Below the pieces are notes generated by a model. It was given only the letters and a program-made list of their open reading frames with translations. It was not told the origin of the DNA and made no database searches. Made by a program: the position numbers and the translations under genes. DNA of 64,000 nt from Candidatus Omnitrophota bacterium (GTDB lineage: Bacteria; Omnitrophota; Gorgyraeia; Gygaellales; Profunditerraquicolaceae): NCBI GenBank assembly GCA_028717245.1, contig JAQUOD010000001.1, positions 309,324 through 373,323 of the forward strand, given 5' to 3'. Positions 3,581 to 63,024 of the stretch are shown here, in pieces; positions within the stretch are counted from its first letter, which is position 1; every line of letters starts with the position of its first letter.

Positions 3581-4750
3581 TTATTTTTCCAGTCTTAAGA
3601 AACGCTTCTTACCCACCTTTAGGATACCTTCCTGATCAAGGATAGAGTCTTCGCTGTCTAAACGTTTATCCGCAAAGGAAACGCCCCCCTGTTTTATCAG
3701 GCGCCGCGCTTCGTTTTTTGATTCCATTAAACCGCTATCCAAGAGCACGTCGATTAGACTAACTCCTCCTTCTTTTAATTTATAAACCGGGGCATCCTCA
3801 GGAAGCTCACCCTGGCTAAAAACGCGCTCAAAGCCTGCCCTGGCCTCCTTAGCCAAACGGCTGCCGTGATACTGAGAGGTTATCTTCTCTGCCAGGTTCA
3901 ATTTGGCTTGCTTAGGATGCATCTTCTTTACTGTTTCCAAATCCTCGTCCGTAAGCAGGGTGTAATACTTAAACATCAATTCATCGGACACCGACATAGT
4001 CTTCCCAAACATCTCCTTCGGTGCCTCATTAATACCAATATAATTACCCAGCGATTTACTCATCTTATTCACTCCGTCGGTGCCTTCAAGCAACGGTAGA
4101 GTAACGATTACCTGCGGGGACTGGCCAAAATCCTTTTGGAGTTCCCTGCCTACAATCAAATTGAATTTCTGGTCATTACCCCCAATCTCAATATCTGCCT
4201 TCAGGACTACCGAATCATACCCCTGAAGGATAGGATAAATAAATTCTGACATATATAGCGGCTTTTGCTCTTTAATCCTCAAGGAAAAATCATCCCGCTC
4301 TAATAACCTAGTTGCTGTGTAGTGGGTAAGCAGCCTGCCGAATTCAAGCCCCTTCAACCTGTTGAGCCAGCTGCTGTTAAAAACAATTTTTGTCTTTCTG
4401 GAATCAAGAATCTTAAAAACCTGTTTTTTATACGTCGCGCTATTAGCTTTTATTTCTTTTGCGCTGGGGACTCTTCTGGCTTTATTCTGTCCGGAGGGGT
4501 CGCCGATACGCGCGGTAAAATCACCGATGAGAAAAATCACCTGATGGCCTAAGTCCTGAAACTGGCGCAGTTTCCTCAAGAGGACAGTATGGCCCAAATG
4601 GATATCGGCGCTAGTTGGGTCAAAACCTGCCTTTACCCTCAAAGACCGGCCTTCTTTCAAGCTCTTTTCTAGCTTCAGCTTTAATTCTTCCTCGGAGATT
4701 ATCTCTACAGCCCCGCGCCTGATAATTTCCAGCTGTTTATTGATATCCAT
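3581..4750 (-). CDS. tyrS: tyrosine--tRNA ligase
   Basis: HLGH (HIGH-class) and KMSKS motifs; C-terminal S4-like domain. Confidence 0.93.
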   Translation of the reverse strand: MDINKQLEIIRRGAVEIISEEELKLKLEKSLKEGRSLRVKAGFDPTSADIHLGHTVLLRKLRQFQDLGHQVIFLIGDFTARIGDPSGQNKARRVPSAKEIKANSATYKKQVFKILDSRKTKIVFNSSWLNRLKGLEFGRLLTHYTATRLLERDDFSLRIKEQKPLYMSEFIYPILQGYDSVVLKADIEIGGNDQKFNLIVGRELQKDFGQSPQVIVTLPLLEGTDGVNKMSKSLGNYIGINEAPKEMFGKTMSVSDELMFKYYTLLTDEDLETVKKMHPKQAKLNLAEKITSQYHGSRLAKEARAGFERVFSQGELPEDAPVYKLKEGGVSLIDVLLDSGLMESKNEARRLIKQGGVSFADKRLDSEDSILDQEGILKVGKKRFLRLEK

Positions 4751-10424: not shown

Positions 10425-11684
10425 CTATTTTCTAATTTGTCCCTTCCCGAATATCGTATATTTATATGTCGTTAATTCTTCTAATGCCATAGGCCCCCGC
10501 GCATGCAGTTTATCCGTAGAGATACCTATCTCAGCACCCATGCCGAATTGATAACCGTCAGTAAAACGCGTGGAGGCGTTCAGATAAACACAGGCAGAAT
10601 CCACCTGCTTTAAAAAAACTTCTGCGTTCTCTTTATTATCGGTAACAATAGCATCGGAATGATGCGAACCATAATGATTAATGTGCCTGATTGCCTCTTC
10701 TAAACTATCTACGACCTTAACCGATAGGATCAAATCCAGATACTCCGTATGGTAATCTGCATCTTTTGCCTTTTTAATATTTTTCACGATTTTGCAGGTT
10801 ATAGGGCAACCGCGGATTTCCACGCCGGCTTCTTTAAATTTCTTAATCATCCCGGGTAAAAATCTTATGGCAACATCTTTATGCACGAGCATGCTCTCCA
10901 TGGCATTGCAGACTCCAGGCCGCTGAACTTTAGCGTTGTAACATAAATTTTGGGCCATATTCAGGTCTGCCCAATCGTCAACATATACATGGCAGATACC
11001 CTTGTAATGTTTTATTACCGGGATACGCGAAGTTTTGACTACGCGGTTAATCAGGCTTTCGCCGCCGCGGGGAATCACTAGGTCAATATAATCGTTTAAT
11101 TTCAGTAATATATCCACGGCCTGCCTGTCGGCAGTAGTAACCATATTAACGATGCCCGGCGAGATACCTGATCTCTTTATTACCTCTTTGAGTATCTGGT
11201 ATATGGCCAGGTTAGAATTCAGGGCCTCGCTGCCCCCTCTTAAGATAACTGCATTTGCGGATTTAAAACATAACCCGATACAATCCGCAGTCACATTAGG
11301 CCGCGACTCATAAATAATCGCGATTACGCCGATAGGCACGCGCACTTTATTTATCAGGAGGCCGCAAGGCCTGCGCCAAGCCCTCATTACTTCACCCACC
11401 GGGTCATCTAATCCGGCTATTTCTAATAAAGAGCCTGACATCTCTTCTATCCTCTTTTGGTTAAGAACGAGCCTGTCGATAAATGCAGCCGATGAGCCAT
11501 TGGCAAGAGACTTCTGTATATCCTTCTTGTTTGCTTTGAGGATAATGTTTTTATTTTTCTTTAAGGCCATGGCCATGCCCTTGAGAACTTTATTCTTCAA
11601 CGCAGAGGATACGTTAAGCATGCCTAATGATGCCTCACGGGCATTCCTGGCTATACGGATAAATTCTTCTTTCAGCTGCGCCAT
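10425..11684 (-). CDS. proA: glutamate-5-semialdehyde dehydrogenase
   Basis: 419 aa, aldehyde dehydrogenase fold; gene order proB-proA. Confidence 0.9.
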   Translation of the reverse strand: MAQLKEEFIRIARNAREASLGMLNVSSALKNKVLKGMAMALKKNKNIILKANKKDIQKSLANGSSAAFIDRLVLNQKRIEEMSGSLLEIAGLDDPVGEVMRAWRRPCGLLINKVRVPIGVIAIIYESRPNVTADCIGLCFKSANAVILRGGSEALNSNLAIYQILKEVIKRSGISPGIVNMVTTADRQAVDILLKLNDYIDLVIPRGGESLINRVVKTSRIPVIKHYKGICHVYVDDWADLNMAQNLCYNAKVQRPGVCNAMESMLVHKDVAIRFLPGMIKKFKEAGVEIRGCPITCKIVKNIKKAKDADYHTEYLDLILSVKVVDSLEEAIRHINHYGSHHSDAIVTDNKENAEVFLKQVDSACVYLNASTRFTDGYQFGMGAEIGISTDKLHARGPMALEELTTYKYTIFGKGQIRK

Positions 11685-16032: not shown

Positions 16033-16413
16033 GCGGGTCCTGCCGTGGGGGCGCCTCTCGTCAAATTTTCCTCGAGGCATCCCCCGCGTCACCCGCTGGA
16101 CATATTTAACCAGACAGTCTAAGTCCGTTCGTATCTTAAAGATGCTGTTCGAAAACACCCAAGCCACCCGCTAAATATGAATCTGACGAGTCACAATAAA
16201 TGAATCTGGCGGTTTTCGAGCGAATGGAGGTTTTAGCCAATGGAGCTTGAGCATTGAGGGAATCCCCGTGGAGCGAAGCGACAAAACGGGGATGGCGAAG
16301 CTGTTTGAGCAGCATTTGTTAGAACAAATGCTGCGAGTTCTGCAGCCACCGAAAATGCGAAAGATCATTGGCGTTAAAAAACCGACTTGAGCGAGAAAAC
16401 TGACAGATTCATT
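16033..16413. repeat. modular intergenic element, copy A (candidate structured ncRNA or MITE-like repeat)
   Basis: Shares a 5' module with copy B: GCGGGTCCTGCCG...GAGGCATCNCCCGCGTCACCCGCT. Carries the core AAATGAATCTGGCGGTTTTCGAGCGAATGGAGGTTTTAGCCAA and a 3' CAGATTCATT that pairs with the core. A/B differences are compensatory in stems. Confidence 0.7.
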
Positions 16414-25563: not shown

Positions 25564-25874
25564 TTTAGCGGGTCCTGCCGCGTGAGCGCCTCTCGCCAAA
25601 TTTGGCTCGAGGCATCTCCCGCGTCACCCGCTAAAGATAAATATGTCAACTTGCAACAAATGAATCTGGCGGTTTTCGAGCGAATGGAGGTTTTAGCCAA
25701 AGCAGCTTGAGTGAACGAGGGAATCCGAACGCGGAAGCATTCGGACAGCGAGGATGTTTGAGCCCGTCCTGGCGAAGCCGACGGGCGAGTTCCGCAGCTG
25801 CCGAGTTCACGAAAGACCTTTGGCGTGCCCGATAGGGCAAAACCGACTTGAGCGAGAAAATCGACAGATTCATT
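25564..25874. repeat. modular intergenic element, copy B
   Basis: Begins TTTAGCGGGTCCTGCCG and ends CAGATTCATT. Has the same core as copies A and C, plus the conserved TTTGAGC-hairpin-CGAGTTC module with a different stem sequence than A. Confidence 0.7.
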
Positions 25875-57186: not shown

Positions 57187-57302
57187 CTGGTAATAAAATT
57201 ATTAAATAGACGGAATGAATTTATAAAATATCACAAACAGTGGGAGAATGCAAGAGATTTTAGGCTTCCGCTAAAATCCGTAGATATATATAGCAGTTTA
57301 AC

Positions 57303-57675
57303 GGGTCCTGTCTTGGCTTGTTCTCGCAGCATCGCTCGAAATTCCCAGCGTGAATTTCTCGCTTCGTGAAACTTCTCGCTCTCGATACTAAGCAGGGGCG
57401 AAACGAACCTTGCCCGCTCGAACTTTCAAGATGCTGCTGAAAAACATGCCTCGTTACCCGCTAAAGATAAATATGCTAATTTACAAATGAATCTGGCAGT
57501 TTTCGAGCGAACGTTAGCATTTAGTGGGTGGCTTGGGTGTTTTCGACAGCATGTAGTTTGTGCGAACGGCCAGGGTTCACCCGCTACCACAAATATCAGT
57601 GAGAGTGAGCACAAACTCCAAGCGATCCGCCGTAGGCGGAGAGCGGTGCTGGAGAAAATACCCAAGACAGGACCC
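57303..57675. repeat. modular intergenic element, copy C, bounded by perfect 14-bp terminal inverted repeats GGGTCCTGTCTTGG / CCAAGACAGGACCC
   Basis: Shares with A/B the core TTACCCGCTAAAGATAAATATG...CAAATGAATCTGGCAGTTTTCGAGCGAA. Shares with A the AAGATGCTG.T..GAAAAACA module. Confidence 0.75.
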
Positions 57676-57683
57676 ACTACCTC

Positions 57684-59261
57684 TCAAGTTCCTTGACTCT
57701 CATGAATTTGGCGGGAGAAATAGCCACCGGTTAAGGCATCTATGGAGGCGGTGAGTTCCTGCAGTTTTAACTCCTTCTCAAACCTTTTCTTCCTGTCTTC
57801 TATACTAAGATTATCCATCTCCGCCTTAGTGCGGATACGCTCAAAATATAATTTGGTCACCTCATCTAAGATCTCATCGCGTAACTCTACCATTAACCGC
57901 GAACGCACATCAATGGAGGTCTGGTCGTCGTTCCAGATGAGTTCGCCTAAATCCCAGCTTAAAGTCACATCCCAACCTATGCCATCGTTGCCCTTACGCA
58001 GTATATCGTCTTCGGTCTTGGTGCTGGAACCTGTCTCCCAATGCCAGAGGTCAGTAATATTCCTATCCAGGCCTATGTTCACTTGAGGCAGAAACGCTCT
58101 CTTGGCTGCCTGTTTTCTCCAACGCATAATCTTCTGAGGTTCTACTTCAGCATACTTAATTGCCGCCTGCTGCACTTCATTAATCTTAGGTTCGCCCTGG
58201 CAATACAGGAAAAAGGTATTGCCACCCCCATTGTTACTAAAACCTGTTAAATTTGCCTTAAATAATCCTTTATCACAAGCCGCATAAAGATTATTCAGGT
58301 TATCTAAAACCAGAAACCTGATATCATCTGCTGGCAGGCTAAACGATAATTCCTGCCAACGCCCCATGCTATATTTAAATATACCGGATTTGGTAAGCGC
58401 GTAGATGTCGGATCTATCGGAAACTAATAAAAATTTTATACCTTGGCTCAACAGGCCGTAGTTAGAAACTGCATCCCAACTCTTACCTTTATCCTGGCTC
58501 TTATAAAGGCCTTTTGCGGTAGCCAGATAAAGATAATTTAAGTTATTAAGGTCGCAACTTATATGGCTTACTTGCGAAAAACGCTGCTCTTCATCCCGAT
58601 CCCCCTTCTCTTGCCCGTTATCGCTATCTCCATTTTCTACGGGCTTAGCTACAAAAACCCTCTCCCAGGATTGGCCTCCATCTTGCGTCTGGAAAACCCC
58701 GTCTACACAAGCCAGAGAAATATAGCCCGATTTTTTGGGATGAACGGCAATAGCGAGAATATTACTGTTAGCTAATGTGCCTGATGCCCTTTGCCAACTG
58801 CGGCCCTTATCTTTACTCACGAAAAACCCGGACCTGGTGCCTAAGTAAATGGCCTCGGATAAAACCGCGATGCTTGTGCAGTCACTTTCTAAATAGTTCT
58901 TACCCTGAAAAATCCTCCTCCAGCCCTGGCCTTGATTATGGCTATAGAAAAGGCCGTTGCCGGTTGCCGCATATAGATAATTTCTGTTCTGATGATCAAA
59001 TAAAAGGAAATTTACTGCCTTGTTTTGGCCTTTTGCCAAAAAGATATTCCTCCAACTCTCTCCTGCATCCTCTGTCTTAAATATCCCCTTATCAGAACCG
59101 ATATAGATAATGCGCGGATTTTTCGAATCGATTAAAACACACCTTAAATCCAGGATTTCCCTGCTTATGTTCTGCCAGATGAACTCATCAGCTAGGGATC
59201 TTGTCCTAAGGCCTAAAATAAATAAACCTGCAGCTGCCAGAATTACAATATATTTTTTCAT
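57684..59261 (-). CDS. secreted BNR/Asp-box repeat (beta-propeller-like) protein with C-terminal coiled-coil region
   Basis: Signal peptide MKKYIVILAAAGLFILG. Five or more S/T-x-D-x-G-x-S-W-like repeats (DAGESW, GQGW, KGRSW, DGGQSW, DKGKSW). Confidence 0.7.
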   Translation of the reverse strand: MKKYIVILAAAGLFILGLRTRSLADEFIWQNISREILDLRCVLIDSKNPRIIYIGSDKGIFKTEDAGESWRNIFLAKGQNKAVNFLLFDHQNRNYLYAATGNGLFYSHNQGQGWRRIFQGKNYLESDCTSIAVLSEAIYLGTRSGFFVSKDKGRSWQRASGTLANSNILAIAVHPKKSGYISLACVDGVFQTQDGGQSWERVFVAKPVENGDSDNGQEKGDRDEEQRFSQVSHISCDLNNLNYLYLATAKGLYKSQDKGKSWDAVSNYGLLSQGIKFLLVSDRSDIYALTKSGIFKYSMGRWQELSFSLPADDIRFLVLDNLNNLYAACDKGLFKANLTGFSNNGGGNTFFLYCQGEPKINEVQQAAIKYAEVEPQKIMRWRKQAAKRAFLPQVNIGLDRNITDLWHWETGSSTKTEDDILRKGNDGIGWDVTLSWDLGELIWNDDQTSIDVRSRLMVELRDEILDEVTKLYFERIRTKAEMDNLSIEDRKKRFEKELKLQELTASIDALTGGYFSRQIHESQGT

Positions 59262-59282
59262 TTTGCCCTCCTTTTATATTAA

Positions 59283-59309
59283 TAGACGCAGGAAGGCAGT
59301 AAATCTAAC
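59283..59309 (-). promoter_or_regulatory. conserved promoter-like motif GTTAGATT-N11-TGCGTCTATTA upstream of the BNR gene
   Basis: Near-identical bipartite motif also at 62276-62302. The CGTCTA resembles an ECF -10 element. Confidence 0.55.
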
Positions 59310-59330
59310 AGGATTTTTTTAACGGCGGGC

Positions 59331-61541
59331 CTAGTTGGTGCTGGGATTATCGAATTCCGAGAGTTTCTCCTTTATTTCCTGGTATTCAGGCGTACCCATC
59401 TGCCCATAAATCTCCTGGGCCTGCCGGAGATAGTCTTTGGCTTTATTCCTCCGGCCCCTTTTTTCGTATAAAACCCCCAGGCTGTAAAAAGCAGAAGCAA
59501 GTTCCGGGCGCGCGTTTATTTCTTTGCCGGCTAAAACCGATTGCTTAAGAAACCTTTCGGCATCAGCAAAATTATCCATCTCCATATATAATTCGCCGAT
59601 CATGCCATAATCACCGGCGATATTGGGTTTATTCTGCTGCCTCTGATCAATTGCTAACCCTTTAAAGTAATAAGCTATGGCCTTTTGGTATTGTTTCTCA
59701 AAGGCATATATCTCACCCAGGTTAAAATAATAATCGCTCAGCTCTCCTTTTAATTTTAATTTTTCGAATAGCTTCAGGCCCTTATGATAAAAATCCCTGG
59801 CTGCGGCAAAATCATCCTTATTAGTAAAAACCAGCCCTATATCGAAATAATCGCAGGCTAAATTATACCTATGCTCATACAGATATTTCCTCTCCCGGTT
59901 GATTTCCGAACTCTTCATTAATAATTCCAGGGCCTTATCATTATCCTCCTTATCGATGTACCAGACCGCCAGTTTCCTAAGGGCGATTGCTTCATTCAGC
60001 TTGTCCCCGCCTTCGCTGCTTAGGCGGATAGCTTTATTATAGAAATCAAACGCCTTAGAATATTCTCCCTGCAGGTGATAAATCCAGCCGATCCCGATAT
60101 AAGCACAAGAGAGATGTTTTTTATTATTCTTCTTTTCACTATAAAGGGCATAATCAAAATAATATTTAAGCGCCTTCTCCCTATCGCCTTGCCTCTGATA
60201 AGTATCTGCTAAAAGAGGATAAGCCTGCAGAAAAAGTGGCTCCTTTTCAATGATTTGTCCGCAGAGTAAAATAACTTTCTGGTTATCGCCTTTAAGATAC
60301 AATTTATGCGATTTAGCAAAAGAAAGGTAAGTATTGGGATTTATGGTCGGCAGCCAGGCATATAAAGGTATGCAAAGAGATACTATAAGGGCTACTGAGG
60401 CAATCGCTAAAGCCGGTTTTTTATATAAAGAGGCCTTTCTTTTAAACTTTAGCGCCTGCGGTTTATGCTTAGGTTTAAATAATATAAAGCTGGGATTTCC
60501 GTAGAGAAGATAACTCATCCAGGATACGCCGGCAATGCCATATTCTTTGATTAATTTTAGGCGCCCCAGGCGCACGCATTCTCCTACGCAGGAGCCCCTA
60601 ATTAACTGGGTATAGAATTCCTTGGCAAATATCAGGCTTACGGGGTCTTCGATCTTGCGCGTGGTGCCGATATAATGCCGCACGCCGGAAAATAAAAATG
60701 CCGAGGCCAAGCTGTAATTTTTCTCTTGATAATCTGCATCCGTTAAACCGGATGCGGCCCTTGCAGAATGGCAGGCATTGGAAAAAATCAGACTCGGCAA
60801 AGGCGAACTCTGCGCCAGCTTAAGGATATCCGAAGGCGTAAACTTCCCGTCGTTTAACAACCATCCCATATTTTTCTGGTTATCCGTATCATATTCGCAG
60901 TGTCCGGCAAAATGCACGATATCATAATCGCGCAGATTTTTCTTTACATAGAGCGTATCGATAGAGGTAGATTTAAAATTGATGCTAATCTCGTTTCTTC
61001 TGCGGTCAAACTGATTTTTGATATACACGCCCTCTAGATACGCGGACCTTAGGTCATTGGTAGGGTTAGCCAGTATCAACATCCTGGGAGTACCCATGTG
61101 GCTTCGGTATTGCGGCAGGCGTATTTCATCCTTGGTCCGGATTAACCTGCCTAAATTAAATTTGAGGCACAGGAAATTTTCTGCGTCGTATAAGAGTTCC
61201 CAGGGAATATGGACTAATTTTTCATCTATGGAAAGGATTAAATCCTTAATGATCGTGGACTTTAATCTGTCTTTAACTATCCTCGTAAGCAACTGGTCCC
61301 AGAGTAGCTGGCCTATTTTCCTAAGGTTTTGCAGGGCATCGGACTCTAAAATACCTCCTGGGGTAGCTTTATTCAATATAGCTATCATTTCCTGGCATAA
61401 TTTATCTATTTCGGGAAAGGATACGGCTAGCTGGCTATAATGCCTTAAGGTCGAGGCAAGCTCTTTTTGTTCAAAAATGCTCATCGCCAGCGTCTCTTCT
61501 TGCCGCGATATCTCTAAAACCAGGGCATTCGATTCTTCCAT
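59331..61541 (-). CDS. CHAT-domain (caspase-like protease) protein with one TM helix and C-terminal TPR repeats
   Basis: IVHFAGHCEY (His) and LIFSNACHSA (Cys) CHAT dyad. TM helix KPALAIASVALIVSLCIPLYAWL near residue 375. About 330 aa of TPR-like repeats follow. Confidence 0.8.
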   Translation of the reverse strand: MEESNALVLEISRQEETLAMSIFEQKELASTLRHYSQLAVSFPEIDKLCQEMIAILNKATPGGILESDALQNLRKIGQLLWDQLLTRIVKDRLKSTIIKDLILSIDEKLVHIPWELLYDAENFLCLKFNLGRLIRTKDEIRLPQYRSHMGTPRMLILANPTNDLRSAYLEGVYIKNQFDRRRNEISINFKSTSIDTLYVKKNLRDYDIVHFAGHCEYDTDNQKNMGWLLNDGKFTPSDILKLAQSSPLPSLIFSNACHSARAASGLTDADYQEKNYSLASAFLFSGVRHYIGTTRKIEDPVSLIFAKEFYTQLIRGSCVGECVRLGRLKLIKEYGIAGVSWMSYLLYGNPSFILFKPKHKPQALKFKRKASLYKKPALAIASVALIVSLCIPLYAWLPTINPNTYLSFAKSHKLYLKGDNQKVILLCGQIIEKEPLFLQAYPLLADTYQRQGDREKALKYYFDYALYSEKKNNKKHLSCAYIGIGWIYHLQGEYSKAFDFYNKAIRLSSEGGDKLNEAIALRKLAVWYIDKEDNDKALELLMKSSEINRERKYLYEHRYNLACDYFDIGLVFTNKDDFAAARDFYHKGLKLFEKLKLKGELSDYYFNLGEIYAFEKQYQKAIAYYFKGLAIDQRQQNKPNIAGDYGMIGELYMEMDNFADAERFLKQSVLAGKEINARPELASAFYSLGVLYEKRGRRNKAKDYLRQAQEIYGQMGTPEYQEIKEKLSEFDNPSTN

Positions 61542-61547
61542 CTGTTA

Positions 61548-62252
61548 TTATTTTTTTATATCCAATAATACGGAGGCGATTTTGCTTTCGGGATTAGATA
61601 TCTCAATGGTATATTTGCCCGCTAATACATGCTCGAAAATCACCTTTTCGGAATCGCTAAGGTAGGACTCTAGTTCCAGATCTTCTTTGAAGAGGGTAAC
61701 CCTTAAATCTTTTATGACGCGATGGGTTTGCTTATCTTTTACAAAAACGCTCAAATCAAAAACCTCACCCACCTTCCTTTCTAATTTTAACTCTACCCTA
61801 ATATTCTTAAAATCCTTTAATATGGTCACTTCGTCTTTAAAATCTTTTATCTGACGGCTGCGCAATACGGGCGCAGGCACAAATTCCTGGCCCACCAGTA
61901 TATCTCCGGTAGTATGGATTATCTCTAACGCCTTTTCTTTAAAGGCAATACAAATCTCTAAAATAGGGGCCTTACCTTGCCCGATAACTAAATTTTTCAT
62001 ACGTTCCAACAATTCTTTAGGCACGTTTTTACCCTGCTCGGGCCCTAGCCTCAGCTGAATAGCAAAGGCCTCGGCACAGATATCGCAACTGAGCAAATGT
62101 TCTTCTAAATCCCGGCTTTCTTGCTGGCCTAGCCTTCCTTCCAGAAAACAGGCCCAAGCCTCCTCATCAGGATGCGTGTCATGAACCCTGACGTGACCGG
62201 ATCTCCATCTCTTATAAACTGCCTTAATTAATCTCTCTAATCGATCTGCCAT
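61548..62252 (-). CDS. anti-sigma factor, ZAS (zf-HC2) type, cytoplasmic
   Basis: HLLSCDICAE H-x3-C-x2-C zinc motif. No TM segment. Immediately downstream of the ECF sigma gene. Confidence 0.65.
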   Translation of the reverse strand: MADRLERLIKAVYKRWRSGHVRVHDTHPDEEAWACFLEGRLGQQESRDLEEHLLSCDICAEAFAIQLRLGPEQGKNVPKELLERMKNLVIGQGKAPILEICIAFKEKALEIIHTTGDILVGQEFVPAPVLRSRQIKDFKDEVTILKDFKNIRVELKLERKVGEVFDLSVFVKDKQTHRVIKDLRVTLFKEDLELESYLSDSEKVIFEHVLAGKYTIEISNPESKIASVLLDIKK

Positions 62253-62275
62253 TTTTAAACCCTCTCCTGCTATAA

Positions 62276-62302
62276 TAGACGCAAATACTTCAGCAATCTA
62301 AC
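62276..62302 (-). promoter_or_regulatory. conserved promoter-like motif GTTAGATT-N11-TGCGTCTATTA upstream of the anti-sigma gene (overlaps sigma stop codon)
   Basis: Same motif and spacing as at 59283-59309; followed by an SD and ATG. Confidence 0.55.
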
Positions 62303-62895
62303 ATAAAACCTTTGTCTCTAAAACACTCTCTTAACCGTTCTAAAATCCGCGACTTACGCATATCTATGGCCCCGCGAGAGACTTTAAAATAGGCCCTTAG
62401 TTCTTCGAGGTTTAACCCCCTATGGATATGTAGCTCCAAGAAATATTTATCATTATTCTCCAGTTTATCAATGCAGTCTTTAAGGTGCACCAGCCTCTCC
62501 TGTTGATTGTAGGTATCAGCTGCAGACGGAGAATTAGAAGAAAGTATCTCTGTAAGGCTAAAGCCCTTATCGTCTTCCTCATCAATAGAGATAACTGACT
62601 TAAGCCGGCGCGTGTAACTAATGGTAAAATTAACCGTAACTTGTCTTAACCAGCTGGCGAGGCTTGCGCCATTTCTGGCTTTAAAACTGCTTAATTTTCT
62701 AAAATTATCTTTGACTAAGGAGAGGATTATTTCCTGAAAGATATCGTTAAGGTTTTCCTGCGTAAAGCTAGAACCCTGGATTTTTAAAACGCTGTGTATA
62801 TAGTTATATATCAGGCGGGAATACTTATCTATGAATTCATCCCAGGCGCGTTTGTCCCCTTTGGCACACTTTTGGACAAACTCTAGATCATCCAT
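62290..62895 (-). CDS. RNA polymerase ECF-type sigma-70 family factor
   Basis: Region 2 (FIDKYSRLIYNYIHSVL) and region 4 HTH (LELHIHRGLNLEELRAYFKVSRGAIDMRKSRILERLR). Confidence 0.85.
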   Translation of the reverse strand: MDDLEFVQKCAKGDKRAWDEFIDKYSRLIYNYIHSVLKIQGSSFTQENLNDIFQEIILSLVKDNFRKLSSFKARNGASLASWLRQVTVNFTISYTRRLKSVISIDEEDDKGFSLTEILSSNSPSAADTYNQQERLVHLKDCIDKLENNDKYFLELHIHRGLNLEELRAYFKVSRGAIDMRKSRILERLRECFRDKGFMLDC

Positions 62896-62904
62896 AGTGG
62901 TAAA

Positions 62905-62934
62905 ATTATACCACTAAATATTCCCCTTTATCAA
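62905..62934 (-). promoter_or_regulatory. sigma70-type promoter TTGATA-18-TATAAT for the ECF sigma gene; -10 sits in a GTGGTA/TACCAC mini-palindrome 9 nt before the ATG (leaderless-like)
   Basis: Minus-strand -35 at 62929-62934 and -10 at 62905-62910. No SD before the ATG at 62895. Confidence 0.45.
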
Positions 62935-62982: not shown

Positions 62983-63020
62983 TTGCACCAGGTGCCCGAT
63001 TAGTTTCGCACCTGGTGCAA
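62983..63020. promoter_or_regulatory. perfect 13-bp inverted repeat TTGCACCAGGTGC-N12-GCACCTGGTGCAA between hppA stop and the sigma promoter; G8 homopolymer at 62957-62964
   Basis: Read directly from the sequence. No U-tract follows on the coding strand, so operator or hppA 3' hairpin are both possible. Confidence 0.6.
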
Positions 63021-63024
63021 AAAT

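Follow-up and report, generated by a model that had tools for sequence, protein, structure and literature searches.

Where the gene of a caspase-like CHAT protein lies directly behind the genes of an ECF sigma factor and an anti-sigma factor, does the protease act on the anti-sigma factor and thereby on the sigma factor? The question is raised by a four-gene locus on the minus strand of a metagenome-assembled genome of Candidatus Omnitrophota, for which we analysed a DNA stretch of 64 kb (the window). All four open reading frames were recovered at the positions given in Table 1, where the other features discussed below are also listed.

Table 1. Features of the locus, with positions counted from the first nucleotide of the window
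Feature	Position	Strand	Basis
ECF (group IV) sigma factor, 201 aa	62290..62895	-	TIGR02937, weaker Sigma70_r2/r4
Soluble two-domain ZAS-type anti-sigma factor, 234 aa	61548..62252	-	Zinc motif, conservation, AF2 model
HetF-like CHAT-TM-TPR receptor protease (putative), 736 aa	59331..61541	-	Pfam, TM segment, AF2 model
Secreted Asp-box (BNR) beta-propeller protein, 525 aa	57684..59261	-	Signal peptide, 5 Asp boxes, profile matches
CHAT domain, residues 75-348	60498-61319	-	PF12770
TM helix, residues 377-397	60351-60413	-	Sole hydrophobic segment
Predicted extracytoplasmic TPR domain, ~ residues 413-720	59382-60305	-	TPR models
Arg131 codon, candidate P1 of CHAT cleavage site PAPVLR/SR	61860..61862	-	Conservation, pLDDT <50 region, HetF analogy
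Predicted sigma70-type promoter of the sigma gene	62905..62934	-	TTGATA, 18 nt, TG-extended TATAAT
Putative ECF-type promoter motif 1, TGTTAGATT-N13-CGTCTATTA	62273..62303	-	Sigma end and 37-nt gap
Putative ECF-type promoter motif 2	59280..59310	-	Within 69-nt gap upstream of BNR gene

A conserved sigma/anti-sigma/CHAT triad

The genes are tightly packed, with gaps of 37 nt (sigma/anti-sigma), 6 nt (anti-sigma/CHAT) and 69 nt (CHAT/BNR). The sigma factor was recovered by the TIGR02937 sigma70-ECF profile (65.1 bits; cutoff 42.9), its matches to Pfam Sigma70_r2 and r4 both stayed below threshold, and its best relatives of solved structure are AlgU/RpoE-like. The BNR protein combines a signal-peptide-like N-terminus with five Asp boxes and matches Sortilin-Vps10 (56.4 bits; cutoff 33) as well as Ycf48-like profiles; a Pfam scan of its C-terminal 169 aa returned no family. 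A TM segment is absent from both the sigma and the anti-sigma factor. Profile searches, hydrophobicity and the measured gaps bore out the preliminary description in its domain calls, its one TM helix and its closely spaced genes, including the 6 nt between the anti-sigma and CHAT genes.

The sigma, anti-sigma and CHAT genes are adjacent in all 79 scorable loci of a genome survey (74 of Omnitrophota type and five divergent ones, L003-L007): the anti-sigma gene directly precedes the CHAT gene in each of them (median gap 5 nt), and a sigma homologue was found upstream wherever the DNA on that side extended over 1.6 kb or more (71/71). The same adjacency occurs in 58 of 65 divergent metagenome loci, with overlaps of mostly 1 to 11 nt, and sigma and CHAT genes flank even the most distant anti-sigmas examined (25-27% identity). 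Across phyla the anti-sigma and CHAT genes remain strictly adjacent, and in many cases the stop codon of the first overlaps the start codon of the second. The arrangement is not due to chance: the gene order recurs in every related locus with sufficient upstream DNA. Seven divergent loci, mostly encoding cyclase-fused CHAT proteins, have no sigma/anti-sigma pair, which implies that the CHAT domain is able to serve other partners. The wider neighbourhood is also constant: an H+-PPase gene upstream and thioredoxin and pta-ackA genes downstream recur in dozens of species-level Omnitrophota genomes.

The BNR gene behaves differently. It lies at most 6 kb downstream in 31 of 45 Omnitrophota loci, with 54 to 5951 nt in between; we noted none in the gene lists inspected for the distant-branch loci L003-L007. 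The conserved core is therefore a triad and not a tetrad; of the four-gene module described earlier, the synteny of the first three members held among relatives, and the BNR gene as a fixed fourth member had to be dropped. Within the triad the part of the CHAT protein that lies outside varies (TPR, DUF4384, F5/8-type-C or a short tail only) and some members carry a fused cyclase domain, while the CHAT N-domain and the anti-sigma factor stay constant, a pattern expected of a sensor/transducer.

Architecture of the CHAT protein and of the anti-sigma factor

The CHAT domain matches PF12770 with 94.2 bits (cutoff 24). It is preceded by a small beta/alpha subdomain and separated from the TM helix by a basic juxtamembrane stretch; beyond the helix, TPR_12 (1.5e-31) and further TPR models match. 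The lysines and arginines that flank the helix number nine before and four after it. Since the TM segment occurs in 72 of 72 CHAT orthologues and the N-side charge bias in 69 of these, the positive-inside rule places the CHAT domain in the cytoplasm, in the same compartment as the anti-sigma factor, and the TPR domain outside. The motifs HFAGH (from residue 210) and SNACHS (from residue 254) hold the dyad H214/C257. Neither residue varies among 65 diverse homologues, an argument for selection on catalysis, and the dyad aligns in register with solved structures of CHAT and caspase enzymes, among them 3bij, DdvA (C907) and Sb TPR-CHAT. The spacing of 43 residues between His and Cys equals that of Csx29 (H615/C658), and the AF2 model (pLDDT 88.3) resembles Csx29, separase, SAVED-CHAT and DdvA, with Csx29 nearest (E 7e-13, TM-score 0.59). 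By invariance, register, spacing and modelled fold, then, the protease looks active. The earlier reading of the dyad as intact agrees with this, and the topology check places CHAT on the side where the anti-sigma factor is found. Orthology with HetF itself was rejected (23 bits with the NCBIfam HetF model; cutoff 1200).

Clustering at 50% identity divides the anti-sigma family into 510 clusters, almost all of them of 225-245 aa. The proposed check against zf-HC2 came out divided: the Pfam match is sub-threshold (15.3; cutoff 22.2), and the zinc motif H52-x3-C56-x2-C59 is nevertheless present. The N-terminal domain, modelled by AF2 with moderate confidence only, is helical and of the zinc-binding type, with ligands H27, H52, C56 and C59. 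The complete C/H-H-C-C motif is conserved; the Omnitrophota have His as first ligand and hence an HHCC site. The best matches of solved structure to the anti-sigma profile were DdvA-Nt (the top sequence match), RsiW, RslA, RsrA and ChrR. Residues 27-82 align with ChrR 6-61 and bring all four ligands into register with those of ChrR, which we take to be residues 6, 31, 35 and 38. A linker of about 70 residues (~65-137) follows, which is conserved, with many invariant residues, yet modelled with pLDDT <50; it leads to a conserved Ig-like beta-sandwich (residues 140-234) with generic Ig/MG-like fold matches. Past P78, R131 is the sole linker residue kept in both branches (140 sequences), and in the Omnitrophota it is directly followed by S132. 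By analogy with HetF we regard R131-S132 as a candidate CHAT cleavage site. That the protein extends beyond a minimal anti-sigma domain, with a conserved linker and a beta-sandwich, was counted in favour of cleavage.

Promoter motifs, the proposed circuit and its alternatives

Two kinds of putative promoter were recovered as new results. The sigma gene is preceded by a predicted sigma70-type promoter that matches the consensus at 11 of 12 positions and has the top score in the region; since 9 nt separate the end of its -10 box from the ATG, the transcript should have no leader or almost none. TGnTAtAaT was found at the sigma gene in 43 of 73 loci (background 0.064 TGnTATAAT per kb), and in 39 of these 43 the box ends 6-9 nt before the start codon. 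The second kind is an ECF-type motif that occurs before the anti-sigma-CHAT genes and again before the BNR gene. Motif 1 reaches from the last sigma codons into the gap behind them and lies ~20 nt ahead of the anti-sigma gene, with its GGAG ribosome-binding site and start codon; motif 2 is identical to it at all 18 consensus positions, and these two are the only perfect matches in the window (0.04-0.15 expected). Many ECF promoters typically carry an AAC in the -35 half; here, in GTTAGA, it is missing. Across the survey, 64 loci have the motif where the sigma and anti-sigma genes meet, with a start between -18 and +158 relative to the sigma stop, and this variation points to a DNA-level signal rather than a coding constraint. 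It also precedes the BNR gene in 36-38 loci, irrespective of how far the CHAT and BNR genes are apart (54-5951 nt). The spacing is fixed at 15 nt in 111 of 113 matches, of which only a few are estimated to be due to chance. From this co-localisation we infer that the local sigma factor reads TGTTAGATT-N13-CGTCTATTA. Having an ECF-type promoter of its own, the BNR gene is more likely a target than a fixed fourth member, and its product is probably the output of the regulon.

Taken together, we propose a three-component transmembrane pathway (sigma factor, anti-sigma factor, CHAT receptor protease) in which a HetF-like receptor protease would control the ECF sigma factor by cutting the linker of its inhibitor, a proposal to which we give an even chance. 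The sigma factor would be produced constitutively from the leaderless sigma70-type promoter and kept inactive by the soluble zinc-binding (ZAS) anti-sigma factor, which presumably binds it. The 736-aa protein would cross the membrane once, with the TPR sensor outside and the caspase-like CHAT domain in the cytoplasm; a cue at the TPR domain would activate CHAT, likely via induced proximity or allostery, on the model of caspases, Csx29 and DdvA. CHAT would then cut the conserved flexible linker, possibly between Arg131 and Ser132, the cut would destabilise the anti-sigma factor, and the freed sigma factor would transcribe from the ECF-type motif both the anti-sigma and CHAT genes, closing a feedback or reset loop, and the gene of the secreted Asp-box propeller as the output. 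The positions of the motif at the junction and at the BNR gene fit this logic, and each step has a precedent in HetF/PatU3 or Csx29/Csx30. Of the two readings first put forward, that of a membrane sensor protease acting on a cytoplasmic anti-sigma factor is the best supported, by topology, adjacency, variable outside domains and the invariant dyad; the cleavage step itself is inferred.

The CHAT gene, lying behind an ECF-type promoter, could equally be a regulon member. On such a view, which we consider rather unlikely, the anti-sigma factor would itself be the sensor of a cytoplasmic cue, either thiol oxidation (RsrA) or a signal that depends on the C-terminal domain (ChrR), and the co-induced CHAT protein would cut other targets, e.g. 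envelope or division factors like HetF. If the ZAS domain did sense redox as RsrA does, CHAT would be dispensable for sigma release. The conserved zinc motif in register with ChrR, the single ECF-type promoter that would drive both genes, and the CHAT homologues without a sigma/anti-sigma pair are all compatible with this, as is the known HetF substrate, an inhibitor of division/differentiation and not an anti-sigma factor. It leaves unexplained, however, why anti-sigma and CHAT genes stay adjacent across phyla with overlapping codons while the apparent regulon changes, and why a variable receptor-like outside domain accompanies a co-varying CHAT/anti-sigma pair. Moreover, the HHCC site of the Omnitrophota is of the ChrR type, which is not known to act as a thiol-redox switch, and no thioredoxin-type regulon was detected, the nearby thioredoxin gene being without the upstream motif.

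Distinctly less probable is a CHAT protein that serves as a non-proteolytic membrane tether or co-anti-sigma factor, on which the anti-sigma C-terminal domain docks and keeps the sigma/anti-sigma complex at the membrane until a signal brings about its release or a change of partners, the anti-sigma factor staying uncut. The strict co-occurrence of the two genes and the conserved beta-sandwich would suit such docking, and the linker might act as a pseudosubstrate in the way that securin holds separase, whose complexes with securin also came up when the fold of the CHAT model was compared; but none of the 65 homologues deviates at the catalytic His or Cys, and the characterised relatives HetF, Csx29 and separase all work by cleavage. 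The second of the readings first put forward, a caspase-like effector under ECF control as in defence or cell-fate systems, found no support, and of it only the placement of the CHAT gene behind an ECF-type promoter stands. An anti-phage or cell-suicide system whose effector kills or arrests the cell, modelled on CHAT-containing CRISPR type III, CBASS or Avs-like systems, appears most improbable. The nearest structural neighbours of the CHAT model (Craspase, SAVED-CHAT, DdvA) do all come from defence loci, and the sigma factor weakly matches the NCBIfam type III-E sigma family, but with 29.6 bits this is far under the cutoff of 100. The 64-kb window contains no cas genes, no CRISPR array and no Cas7-11-sized ORF, PADLOC matched nothing except a generic TPR, and the sensor domain is predicted to face outward. 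Defence islands are patchy and variable, whereas this locus sits in a constant housekeeping context.

Comparison with known systems

The preliminary description knew of no canonical ECF module that pairs CHAT with a sigma/anti-sigma pair; the literature corrects this with DdvA/DdvS (PMC11506125), Craspase Csx29/Csx30/CASP-sigma (PMC10028731) and the ECF54 context (PMC8999054), next to HetF (PMC8406250, PMC9457339), a CHAT-TM-TPR protein that cuts a soluble inhibitor. For the ECF54 group of Actinobacteria, a conserved neighbourhood with CHAT-domain and other protease-domain proteins has led to a proposal of proteolytic control (PMC8999054 section 3.3; PMC7826278), but that group belongs to another phylum and has neither a recognisable anti-sigma factor nor a characterised example. 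CalpL-CalpT-CalpS, a type III CRISPR system of SAVED-Lon protease, anti-sigma factor and ECF-like sigma factor (PMC11417357, bioRxiv 10.1101/2024.05.08.593097), is likewise tripartite, and its signal-activated cytoplasmic protease cuts a soluble anti-sigma factor to free the sigma factor; it differs in its Lon-type protease, in its cA4 second messenger in place of a membrane-spanning receptor and in its defence context. ChrR (RpoE-ChrR) and RsrA (SigR-RsrA) share the soluble, zinc-binding H/C-x(23-26)-H-x3-C-x2-C domain, and ChrR also has two domains, its C-terminal beta domain being needed for the signal response. That domain is a cupin, where we find an Ig-like sandwich, and neither ChrR nor RsrA has the 70-residue conserved linker or the obligatory CHAT neighbour.

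In DdvA of Myxococcus xanthus, a ZAS-type (CHCC) domain, a single TM helix and a TPR/CHAT region control the ECF sigma factor DdvS, with CHAT-mediated proteolysis proposed as the trigger; DdvA-like proteins were reported only from Myxococcota and one Comamonas species (PMC11506125, PMC6061681). There, one polypeptide holds a cytoplasmic anti-sigma domain and a periplasmic TPR-CHAT region, whereas here the anti-sigma factor is separate and soluble, CHAT is predicted to be cytoplasmic and TPR alone to lie outside. DdvA also lacks a three-helix active-site motif, and its proposed self-cut followed by RseP processing is inapplicable to a soluble anti-sigma factor. In Craspase, Csx29 (TPR-CHAT) cuts Csx30 and so relieves the inhibition of the ECF-like CASP-sigma (PMC10028731; bioRxiv 10.1101/2022.08.17.504292). 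A cytoplasmic CHAT that cuts a soluble sigma-binding inhibitor is the logic proposed here, the nearest solved fold and the same His-Cys spacing are those of Csx29, and Csx30 is built like our anti-sigma factor: its N-terminal domain binds the sigma factor, a flexible linker follows, and the C-terminal domain is divergent and rich in beta structure (DUF4384 in some members). In contrast, Csx29 is activated by Cas7-11 that binds target RNA, its TPR is N-terminal and cytoplasmic without a TM helix, Csx31 is absent here and the context is one of housekeeping instead of defence; Csx30 was also not among the solved structures matched by the anti-sigma profile at E up to 10.

The closest protease architecture is that of HetF from Anabaena sp. 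PCC 7120, with an N-terminal CHAT, one TM helix and a C-terminal TPR described as periplasmic (PMC8406250, PMC9457339). HetF is larger, its CHAT region being given as aa 1-555, its target PatU3 came out of a genetic suppressor screen and is not described as an anti-sigma factor, and its output is cell division and heterocyst differentiation rather than an ECF regulon. The isolated HetF CHAT domain cuts PatU3 once, after R117 and before S118 (PMC9457339), which ends the sequestration of the partners of PatU3 (PMC8406250, PMC9457339). The order CHAT-TM-TPR is identical in both proteins, and the Arg117-Ser118 cut has its possible counterpart in the candidate Arg131-Ser132 bond of the flexible linker.

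Gene layout and conservation of the locus

An ORF check confirmed the four genes reported in the preliminary description, all on the minus strand, together with the gap of 6 nt between the anti-sigma and CHAT genes (from sigma to BNR the gaps are 37, 6 and 69 nt, respectively). The triad of sigma, anti-sigma and CHAT-TM-TPR genes, the last encoding an N-terminal CHAT domain, a TM helix and a TPR domain, is present in single copy in the 64-kb window, in which no Rfam match was found. The coordinates of these genes and of the associated sequence elements are collected in the table.

Features of the locus and their coordinates within the window
Feature	Coordinates	Strand	Description
Sigma	62290-62895	minus	ORF, 201 aa
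Anti-sigma	61548-62252	minus	ORF, 234 aa
CHAT-TM-TPR	59331-61541	minus	ORF, 736 aa
BNR protein	57684-59261	minus	ORF, 525 aa
Sigma70-type promoter of sigma	62896-62934	minus	TTGATA-18-TG-TATAAT
ECF-type motif, sigma/anti-sigma junction	62273-62303		perfect consensus match
ECF-type motif, 5' of BNR	59280-59310		perfect consensus match
trx promoter	57187-57260		CTTGCA-N17-TGTGATAAT, sigma70-type
Hairpin between BNR stop and trx promoter	57300-57690		~370 nt
Partial copy of this hairpin	16125-16224
Partial copy of this hairpin	25619-25684
Hairpin 3' of H+-PPase	62983-63021		arms GCACCAGGTGC and GCACCTGGTGC

The conserved core is the triad and not a tetrad. On long Omnitrophota contigs the gene order is H+-PPase, sigma, anti-sigma and CHAT-TM-TPR, and in MAGs labelled Deltaproteobacteria or Nitrospirota, as well as in metagenome contigs, a zf-HC2 protein of 234-240 aa is encoded directly 5' of a CHAT N-domain protein, and an ECF sigma lies close by whenever upstream sequence is available. 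A scan of the GTDB species representatives recovered 419 CHAT N-domain relatives, the best 80 of which were Omnitrophota-type MAGs. When these best 80 loci were pooled with the loci gathered earlier, the anti-sigma gene was found directly 5' of CHAT in all 79 loci whose upstream DNA extends over at least 800 nt (79/79; median gap 5 nt), and sigma was found upstream of CHAT in 71/71 loci having at least 1.6 kb of it. A metagenome scan with a divergent member as query yielded at least 536 relatives; among 80 metagenome loci the anti-sigma gene was directly 5' of CHAT in 58 of the 65 scorable cases, the two usually overlapping by 1-11 nt. Even the most divergent anti-sigmas that we looked up (25-27% identity) are preceded by sigma and followed by a CHAT N-domain gene. 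The BNR gene was encountered within 6 kb downstream of CHAT in only 31 of the 45 Omnitrophota loci, at distances of 54-5951 nt and with other genes intervening.

One Omnitrophota MAG carries two genes between CHAT-TPR and BNR (L001, 9923-10996), encoding a 187-aa protein without family match and a 138-aa chagasin-type cysteine-peptidase inhibitor (Pfam Inhibitor_I42). Downstream of the triad, deltaproteobacterial-type loci carry genes in tandem that encode classical TPR-then-CHAT proteins (~820-980 aa, with signal- or lipoprotein-like N-termini) and DUF4384 proteins (L003 9049-15977, L004 8805-13744 and L007 3235-8392, all three of the divergent branch, and downstream in L088-L106). These clusters of exported CHAT proteins may constitute a local regulon.

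The encoded proteins

Profile searches bore out the domains assigned initially to the sigma, CHAT, TPR and BNR proteins; in the anti-sigma the H-x3-C-x2-C motif is present and the match to zf-HC2 is sub-threshold (15.3 bits, cutoff 22.2). The sigma protein belongs to the ECF (group IV) superfamily (TIGR02937 sigma70-ECF, 65.1 bits, cutoff 42.9), with Pfam r2 and r4 matches around residues 22-99 and 142-190 that each score below gathering; none of the equivalog- or subfamily-level NCBIfam models assigned it further, including the CASP-sigma type NF041236 (29.6 bits, cutoff 100). No TM segment was detected in sigma or anti-sigma.

The anti-sigma carries the ZAS motif (H27...H52-x3-C56-x2-C59), with His at position 27 in Omnitrophota, or Cys there in the other phyla, completing the four-ligand site of the ZAS type. 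At 50% identity the family falls into 510 clusters, almost all of 225-245 aa and aligning end to end, also across phyla, and no member longer than ~250 aa occurred among the best 150. In 140 sequences of both branches the residues common to all are L41, H52, C56, C59, P78, R131, R184, L187, E193, S196, F206, G212 and Y214. The top solved matches of the family profile are all anti-sigma domains, albeit weak: DdvA-Nt (0.0035), RsiW (0.012), RslA (0.15), RsrA (0.43) and ChrR, with residues 27-82 aligning to ChrR 6-61 and all four ligands in register. The inhibition of the cognate sigma by direct binding is what the adjacency of the two genes in 71/71 loci leads us to infer. In the AF2 model the N-terminal helices are of moderate confidence and the C-terminal Ig-like sandwich is confident; residues 65-137 have a pLDDT < 50, although many of them are invariant within Omnitrophota. 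Downstream of P78, R131 is the sole conserved residue of this low-confidence linker; Omnitrophota have Ser132 directly after it (PAPVLR-SR). Because the CHAT protease HetF cuts between Arg and Ser, R131/S132 is a natural candidate, by analogy only, for a CHAT cleavage site.

The CHAT-TM-TPR protein matches PF12770 over residues 75-348 (94.2 bits, cutoff 24) and, strongly, TPR models over ~residues 413-720, and contains a single hydrophobic segment (residues 377-397). The His/Cys dyad, described initially as intact, is indeed so: H214 and C257 are invariant in 65 CHAT homologues and occupy the catalytic positions, as in a CHAT-only profile HFAGH and SNAC align to SGHG and DSCHSG of the caspase-like 3bij, C257 to C907 of DdvA, and the Gly-His to 584/585 of the Sb TPR-CHAT protein (stretch 584-668). 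The AF2 model is confident (pLDDT 88.3, pTM 0.84), and among solved folds Foldseek places it nearest to the Craspase protease Csx29 (E 7e-13), followed by separase, SAVED-CHAT, DdvA and gingipain. The dyad residues are 43 positions apart, as are H615 and C658 in Csx29. All 72 complete orthologues have the TM helix, and the N-terminal side is the more basic one in 69 of them (on average 6.5 K/R versus 3.0; 9 versus 4 in the window). By the positive-inside rule the CHAT domain is thus predicted to be cytoplasmic, where the anti-sigma would be accessible to it, and the TPR domain to lie outside the membrane.

The part beyond the TM helix differs among the CHAT proteins and consists of TPR, DUF4384, an F5/8-type-C domain or a short tail. 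We also looked for fusions between anti-sigma and CHAT (Rosetta-stone) and found none in 80 divergent loci: the additional 220-260 N-terminal residues that occur there are a class III nucleotide cyclase domain. A large subgroup is built in this way, with an N-terminal class III adenylate/guanylate cyclase catalytic domain followed by CHAT, TM helix and outside domain (~1050-1130 aa; L089-L093 and L126-L167, e.g. L129 5242-8466), and most of its loci keep sigma and anti-sigma upstream. Of the 7 loci in which the sigma/anti-sigma pair is genuinely missing, most are of this cyclase type, which suggests an alternative or additional output via a nucleotide second messenger.

Promoters, putative regulon and repeat elements

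ECF sigmas normally autoregulate, and a sigma70-type promoter is unusual for a gene encoding one. No ECF-type motif was found 5' of sigma, and classical ECF autoregulation from that position was rejected, as a conserved extended -10 promoter of the sigma70 type occurs there instead. The promoter in the window is near-consensus and the best sigma70-type match of the region; because its -10 box ends 9 nt before the ATG and a Shine-Dalgarno sequence is absent, the sigma mRNA is probably leaderless. An extended -10 box is present in the last 80 nt 5' of the sigma start in 43 of 73 loci (the background frequency of TGnTATAAT is 0.064 per kb) and ends 6-9 nt before the start codon in 39 of these 43. 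It implies housekeeping transcription of sigma. The promoter is kept across Omnitrophota, at the same position in L008-L087.

A bipartite ECF-type motif, GTTAGA-N15-CGTCTA (full consensus TGTTAGATT-N13-CGTCTATTA), was first noticed 5' of the BNR genes. In 1.04 Mb of loci there are 113 occurrences, where by estimate only a few would arise by chance, and 111 of them have a spacing of exactly 15 nt. The motif is located at the sigma/anti-sigma junction in 64 loci, where its start ranges from -18 to +158 relative to the sigma stop, which excludes coding constraint; 5' of BNR in 36-38 loci, independent of the distance to CHAT; 5' of a Y1-transposase-like gene of ~160 aa in 8 loci; and at few other positions. 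The window contains two perfect matches to the 18-position consensus (0.04 expected) and no other when up to 3 mismatches were allowed. Its CGTC -10 element resembles that of many ECF promoters. The co-localisation of motif and sigma, in combination with the usual control of ECF sigmas over their own operon, makes this sigma the putative reader of the motif. In the simplest reading, sigma is constitutive, anti-sigma and CHAT have a basal level by read-through and are induced by free sigma, and BNR is the output of the regulon, a target rather than a fixed member.

The gene behind the motif in those 8 loci encodes a homologue of Y1/IS200-like HUH transposases (motif PNHIHLI; 226 aa in L039). 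It is absent from the window, usually diverges from sigma between H+-PPase and sigma (L001 5672-6201, minus; L039 from 10288, plus; and L008, L009, L013, L016, L021 and L042), and resembles a domesticated or RAYT-like gene that is controlled by the ECF system. In several species a conserved, hairpin-rich element (AAGTGAGGACATAACTTATGGAGC...GGCGACATAACTyAT..CCGAACTTACCCC) lies directly 3' of the CGTCTATTA box, in the leaders of both BNR and anti-sigma genes (L030 ~3980-4280, L044 ~8460, L053 ~10445-10530, and 5' of BNR in L012, L016 and L073); it could represent either a structured 5' leader or a small mobile repeat inserting at these promoters. Thioredoxin (trx), considered as a regulon member by likeness to SigR-RsrA, was rejected: the CGTCTA box that precedes trx in the window is present in only 1 of 26 loci, which places trx outside the ECF regulon, and trx has a conserved sigma70-type promoter of its own.

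The N-terminus of the BNR protein resembles a signal peptide. The protein contains five Asp boxes (S-x-D-x-G-x-x-W, at residues 63, 107, 149, 192 and 255) and matches Sortilin-Vps10 (56.4 bits, cutoff 33) and PSII_BNR (36.1, cutoff 27); its score against the F510_1955 family glycosylhydrolase model NF045728 is below cutoff (96.4 bits versus 175), which gives no ground for an enzymatic role, and a sequence search of the PDB returned generic Asp-box propellers only. The C-terminal 169 aa (residues ~357-525, window 57684-58190) had no Pfam match at E up to 10. By eye this part (…LPQVNIGLDRN…WDVTLSWDLGELIW…TASIDALTGGYF) consists of short strands and then long helices, a pattern that gives an impression of outer-membrane-factor (TolC-like) repeats.

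The gap from the BNR stop to the trx promoter is filled by a long, near-perfect hairpin (RNA MFE -156 kcal/mol, z -7.6), bracketed by GGGTCCTGTCTTGG and CCAAGACAGGACCC. A known RNA in this 450-nt gap was rejected, with no Rfam match at E up to 1 and the hairpin repeat not conserved in the related loci; together with its partial copies it is probably a genome-specific MITE-like repeat. Another hairpin is found 3' of H+-PPase, and the same palindrome, GGGACACCC...GGGTGTCCC, recurs, often in multiple copies, in the PPase-sigma intergenic regions of many other species (e.g. L012, L016, L029 and L067), which suggests a family of REP-like elements common to Omnitrophota.

A candidate protease pathway and its relatives

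The preliminary description had offered two readings of the locus, a membrane-bound CHAT protease that cleaves the anti-sigma or a caspase-like effector in defence or cell fate. We favour the former, its central step by analogy, and consider it an evenly balanced proposition that a HetF-like receptor protease controls sigma by cutting the linker of the anti-sigma. The outside domain of CHAT-TM-TPR would sense a cue, upon which the cytoplasmic CHAT domain would cut the linker; the sigma set free would then drive transcription of the anti-sigma/CHAT pair, as feedback, and of BNR, as output.

In the main rival, the ZAS anti-sigma would do the sensing, and CHAT would be a protease that is co-regulated with it and acts on other substrates. 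This is rather unlikely: it accounts for the ECF-type promoter before CHAT, but leaves without explanation both the strict, translationally coupled pairing of the two genes across phyla and the receptor-like modularity of the protease. A CHAT-TM-TPR protein acting as a non-catalytic tether conflicts with the invariant dyad, and we judge this quite improbable. The effector reading, a role in defence or suicide, fares worst and is to be given very little credence, being contradicted by the conserved housekeeping neighbourhood, by the outward-facing sensor domain and by PADLOC-DB 2.0, which returned for the four proteins generic TPR models on the TPR region only, and nothing for sigma, anti-sigma and BNR; membership of a defence system was rejected on this result and on the absence of CRISPR/cas genes from the window.

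ECF sigmas rank among the major modes of signal transduction in bacteria; the catalogued routes of their release comprise regulated intramembrane proteolysis, conformational change, partner switching, phosphorylation and C-terminal extensions. If the proposed pathway is true, direct cutting of a soluble anti-sigma by a HetF-like, membrane-spanning caspase-type protease would be a new route. A wider and more tentative suggestion is that the triad represents a widespread, previously unrecognised 'receptor-caspase' class, in which an outside ligand domain acts on CHAT, a single cut behind a conserved Arg is made in the dedicated soluble anti-sigma and an ECF regulon is activated. The ligand-binding domains would be TPR, DUF4384, discoidin-like and others, with activation across a single TM helix; ECF activation of this kind would dispense with a site-1/site-2 protease cascade and with a membrane anti-sigma. 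With at least 80 species-level Omnitrophota genomes and several hundred further relatives containing it, the module may be a principal envelope-sensing pathway of this uncultivated phylum. The ECF and CHAT-protease fields would gain a concrete, phylum-conserved pathway, its central step drawn by analogy, that is testable at the candidate cleavage site R131/S132 and with the catalytic mutant C257A, and the TGTTAGATT-N13-CGTCTATTA motif could serve in an orthogonal switch of sigma, promoter, anti-sigma and protease.

The preliminary description knew of no ECF module that pairs CHAT with a sigma/anti-sigma pair. This does not hold, DdvA, Craspase and the ECF54 context being precedents, with CalpL/CalpT/CalpS and HetF as further related systems. 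The initial interpretation is upheld in part: the first reading is retained, the claim of novelty went too far, and BNR is more readily taken as a target than as a member. Our literature search, of incomplete coverage, found no account of a transmembrane CHAT protease that stands alone and is paired with a soluble ZAS anti-sigma, and each ingredient of the proposed pathway has precedent. DdvA is a ZAS anti-sigma fused via a TM helix to a periplasmic TPR-CHAT part, for which a self-cut before the action of RseP was proposed (PMC11506125); it is a single polypeptide, whereas here the anti-sigma is separate and without hydrophobic segment, and CHAT is N-terminal to the TM helix, on its basic side. 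In Craspase, Csx29 cleaves Csx30, which relieves the inhibition of the ECF-like CASP-sigma (PMC10028731), and CalpL/CalpT/CalpS make the same use of a Lon-type protease (PMC11417357). The present locus differs from the Craspase module in its sigma, which falls short of NF041236, in the 64-kb window being without a CRISPR-like repeat array, and in a longest ORF of 754 aa, too short for Cas7-11. Sequence kinship of the anti-sigma to Csx30 was rejected, as the anti-sigma profile did not retrieve Csx30 from the PDB even with E values of up to 10. As part of the wider, tentative suggestion above, the stand-alone module could be the evolutionary source of the type III-E CRISPR accessory genes Csx29/Csx30/CASP-sigma. 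The conserved context of ECF54 includes CHAT-domain proteins, without an anti-sigma (PMC8999054). The closest architecture is that of HetF, with the identical order of CHAT, single TM helix and periplasmic TPR domain (PMC8406250 Fig. 4A; PMC9457339), although CHAT-TM-TPR scores only 23.2 bits against the HetF equivalog NF045509 (cutoff 1200; residues 254-352 only). In the soluble inhibitor PatU3, the isolated CHAT domain of HetF cleaves a single bond, between R117 and S118, and no longer does so when R117 is mutated (PMC9457339). If the proposed pathway is true, HetF/PatU3 of cyanobacterial development, Craspase and DdvA would unite with it as one family of CHAT-gated regulators.
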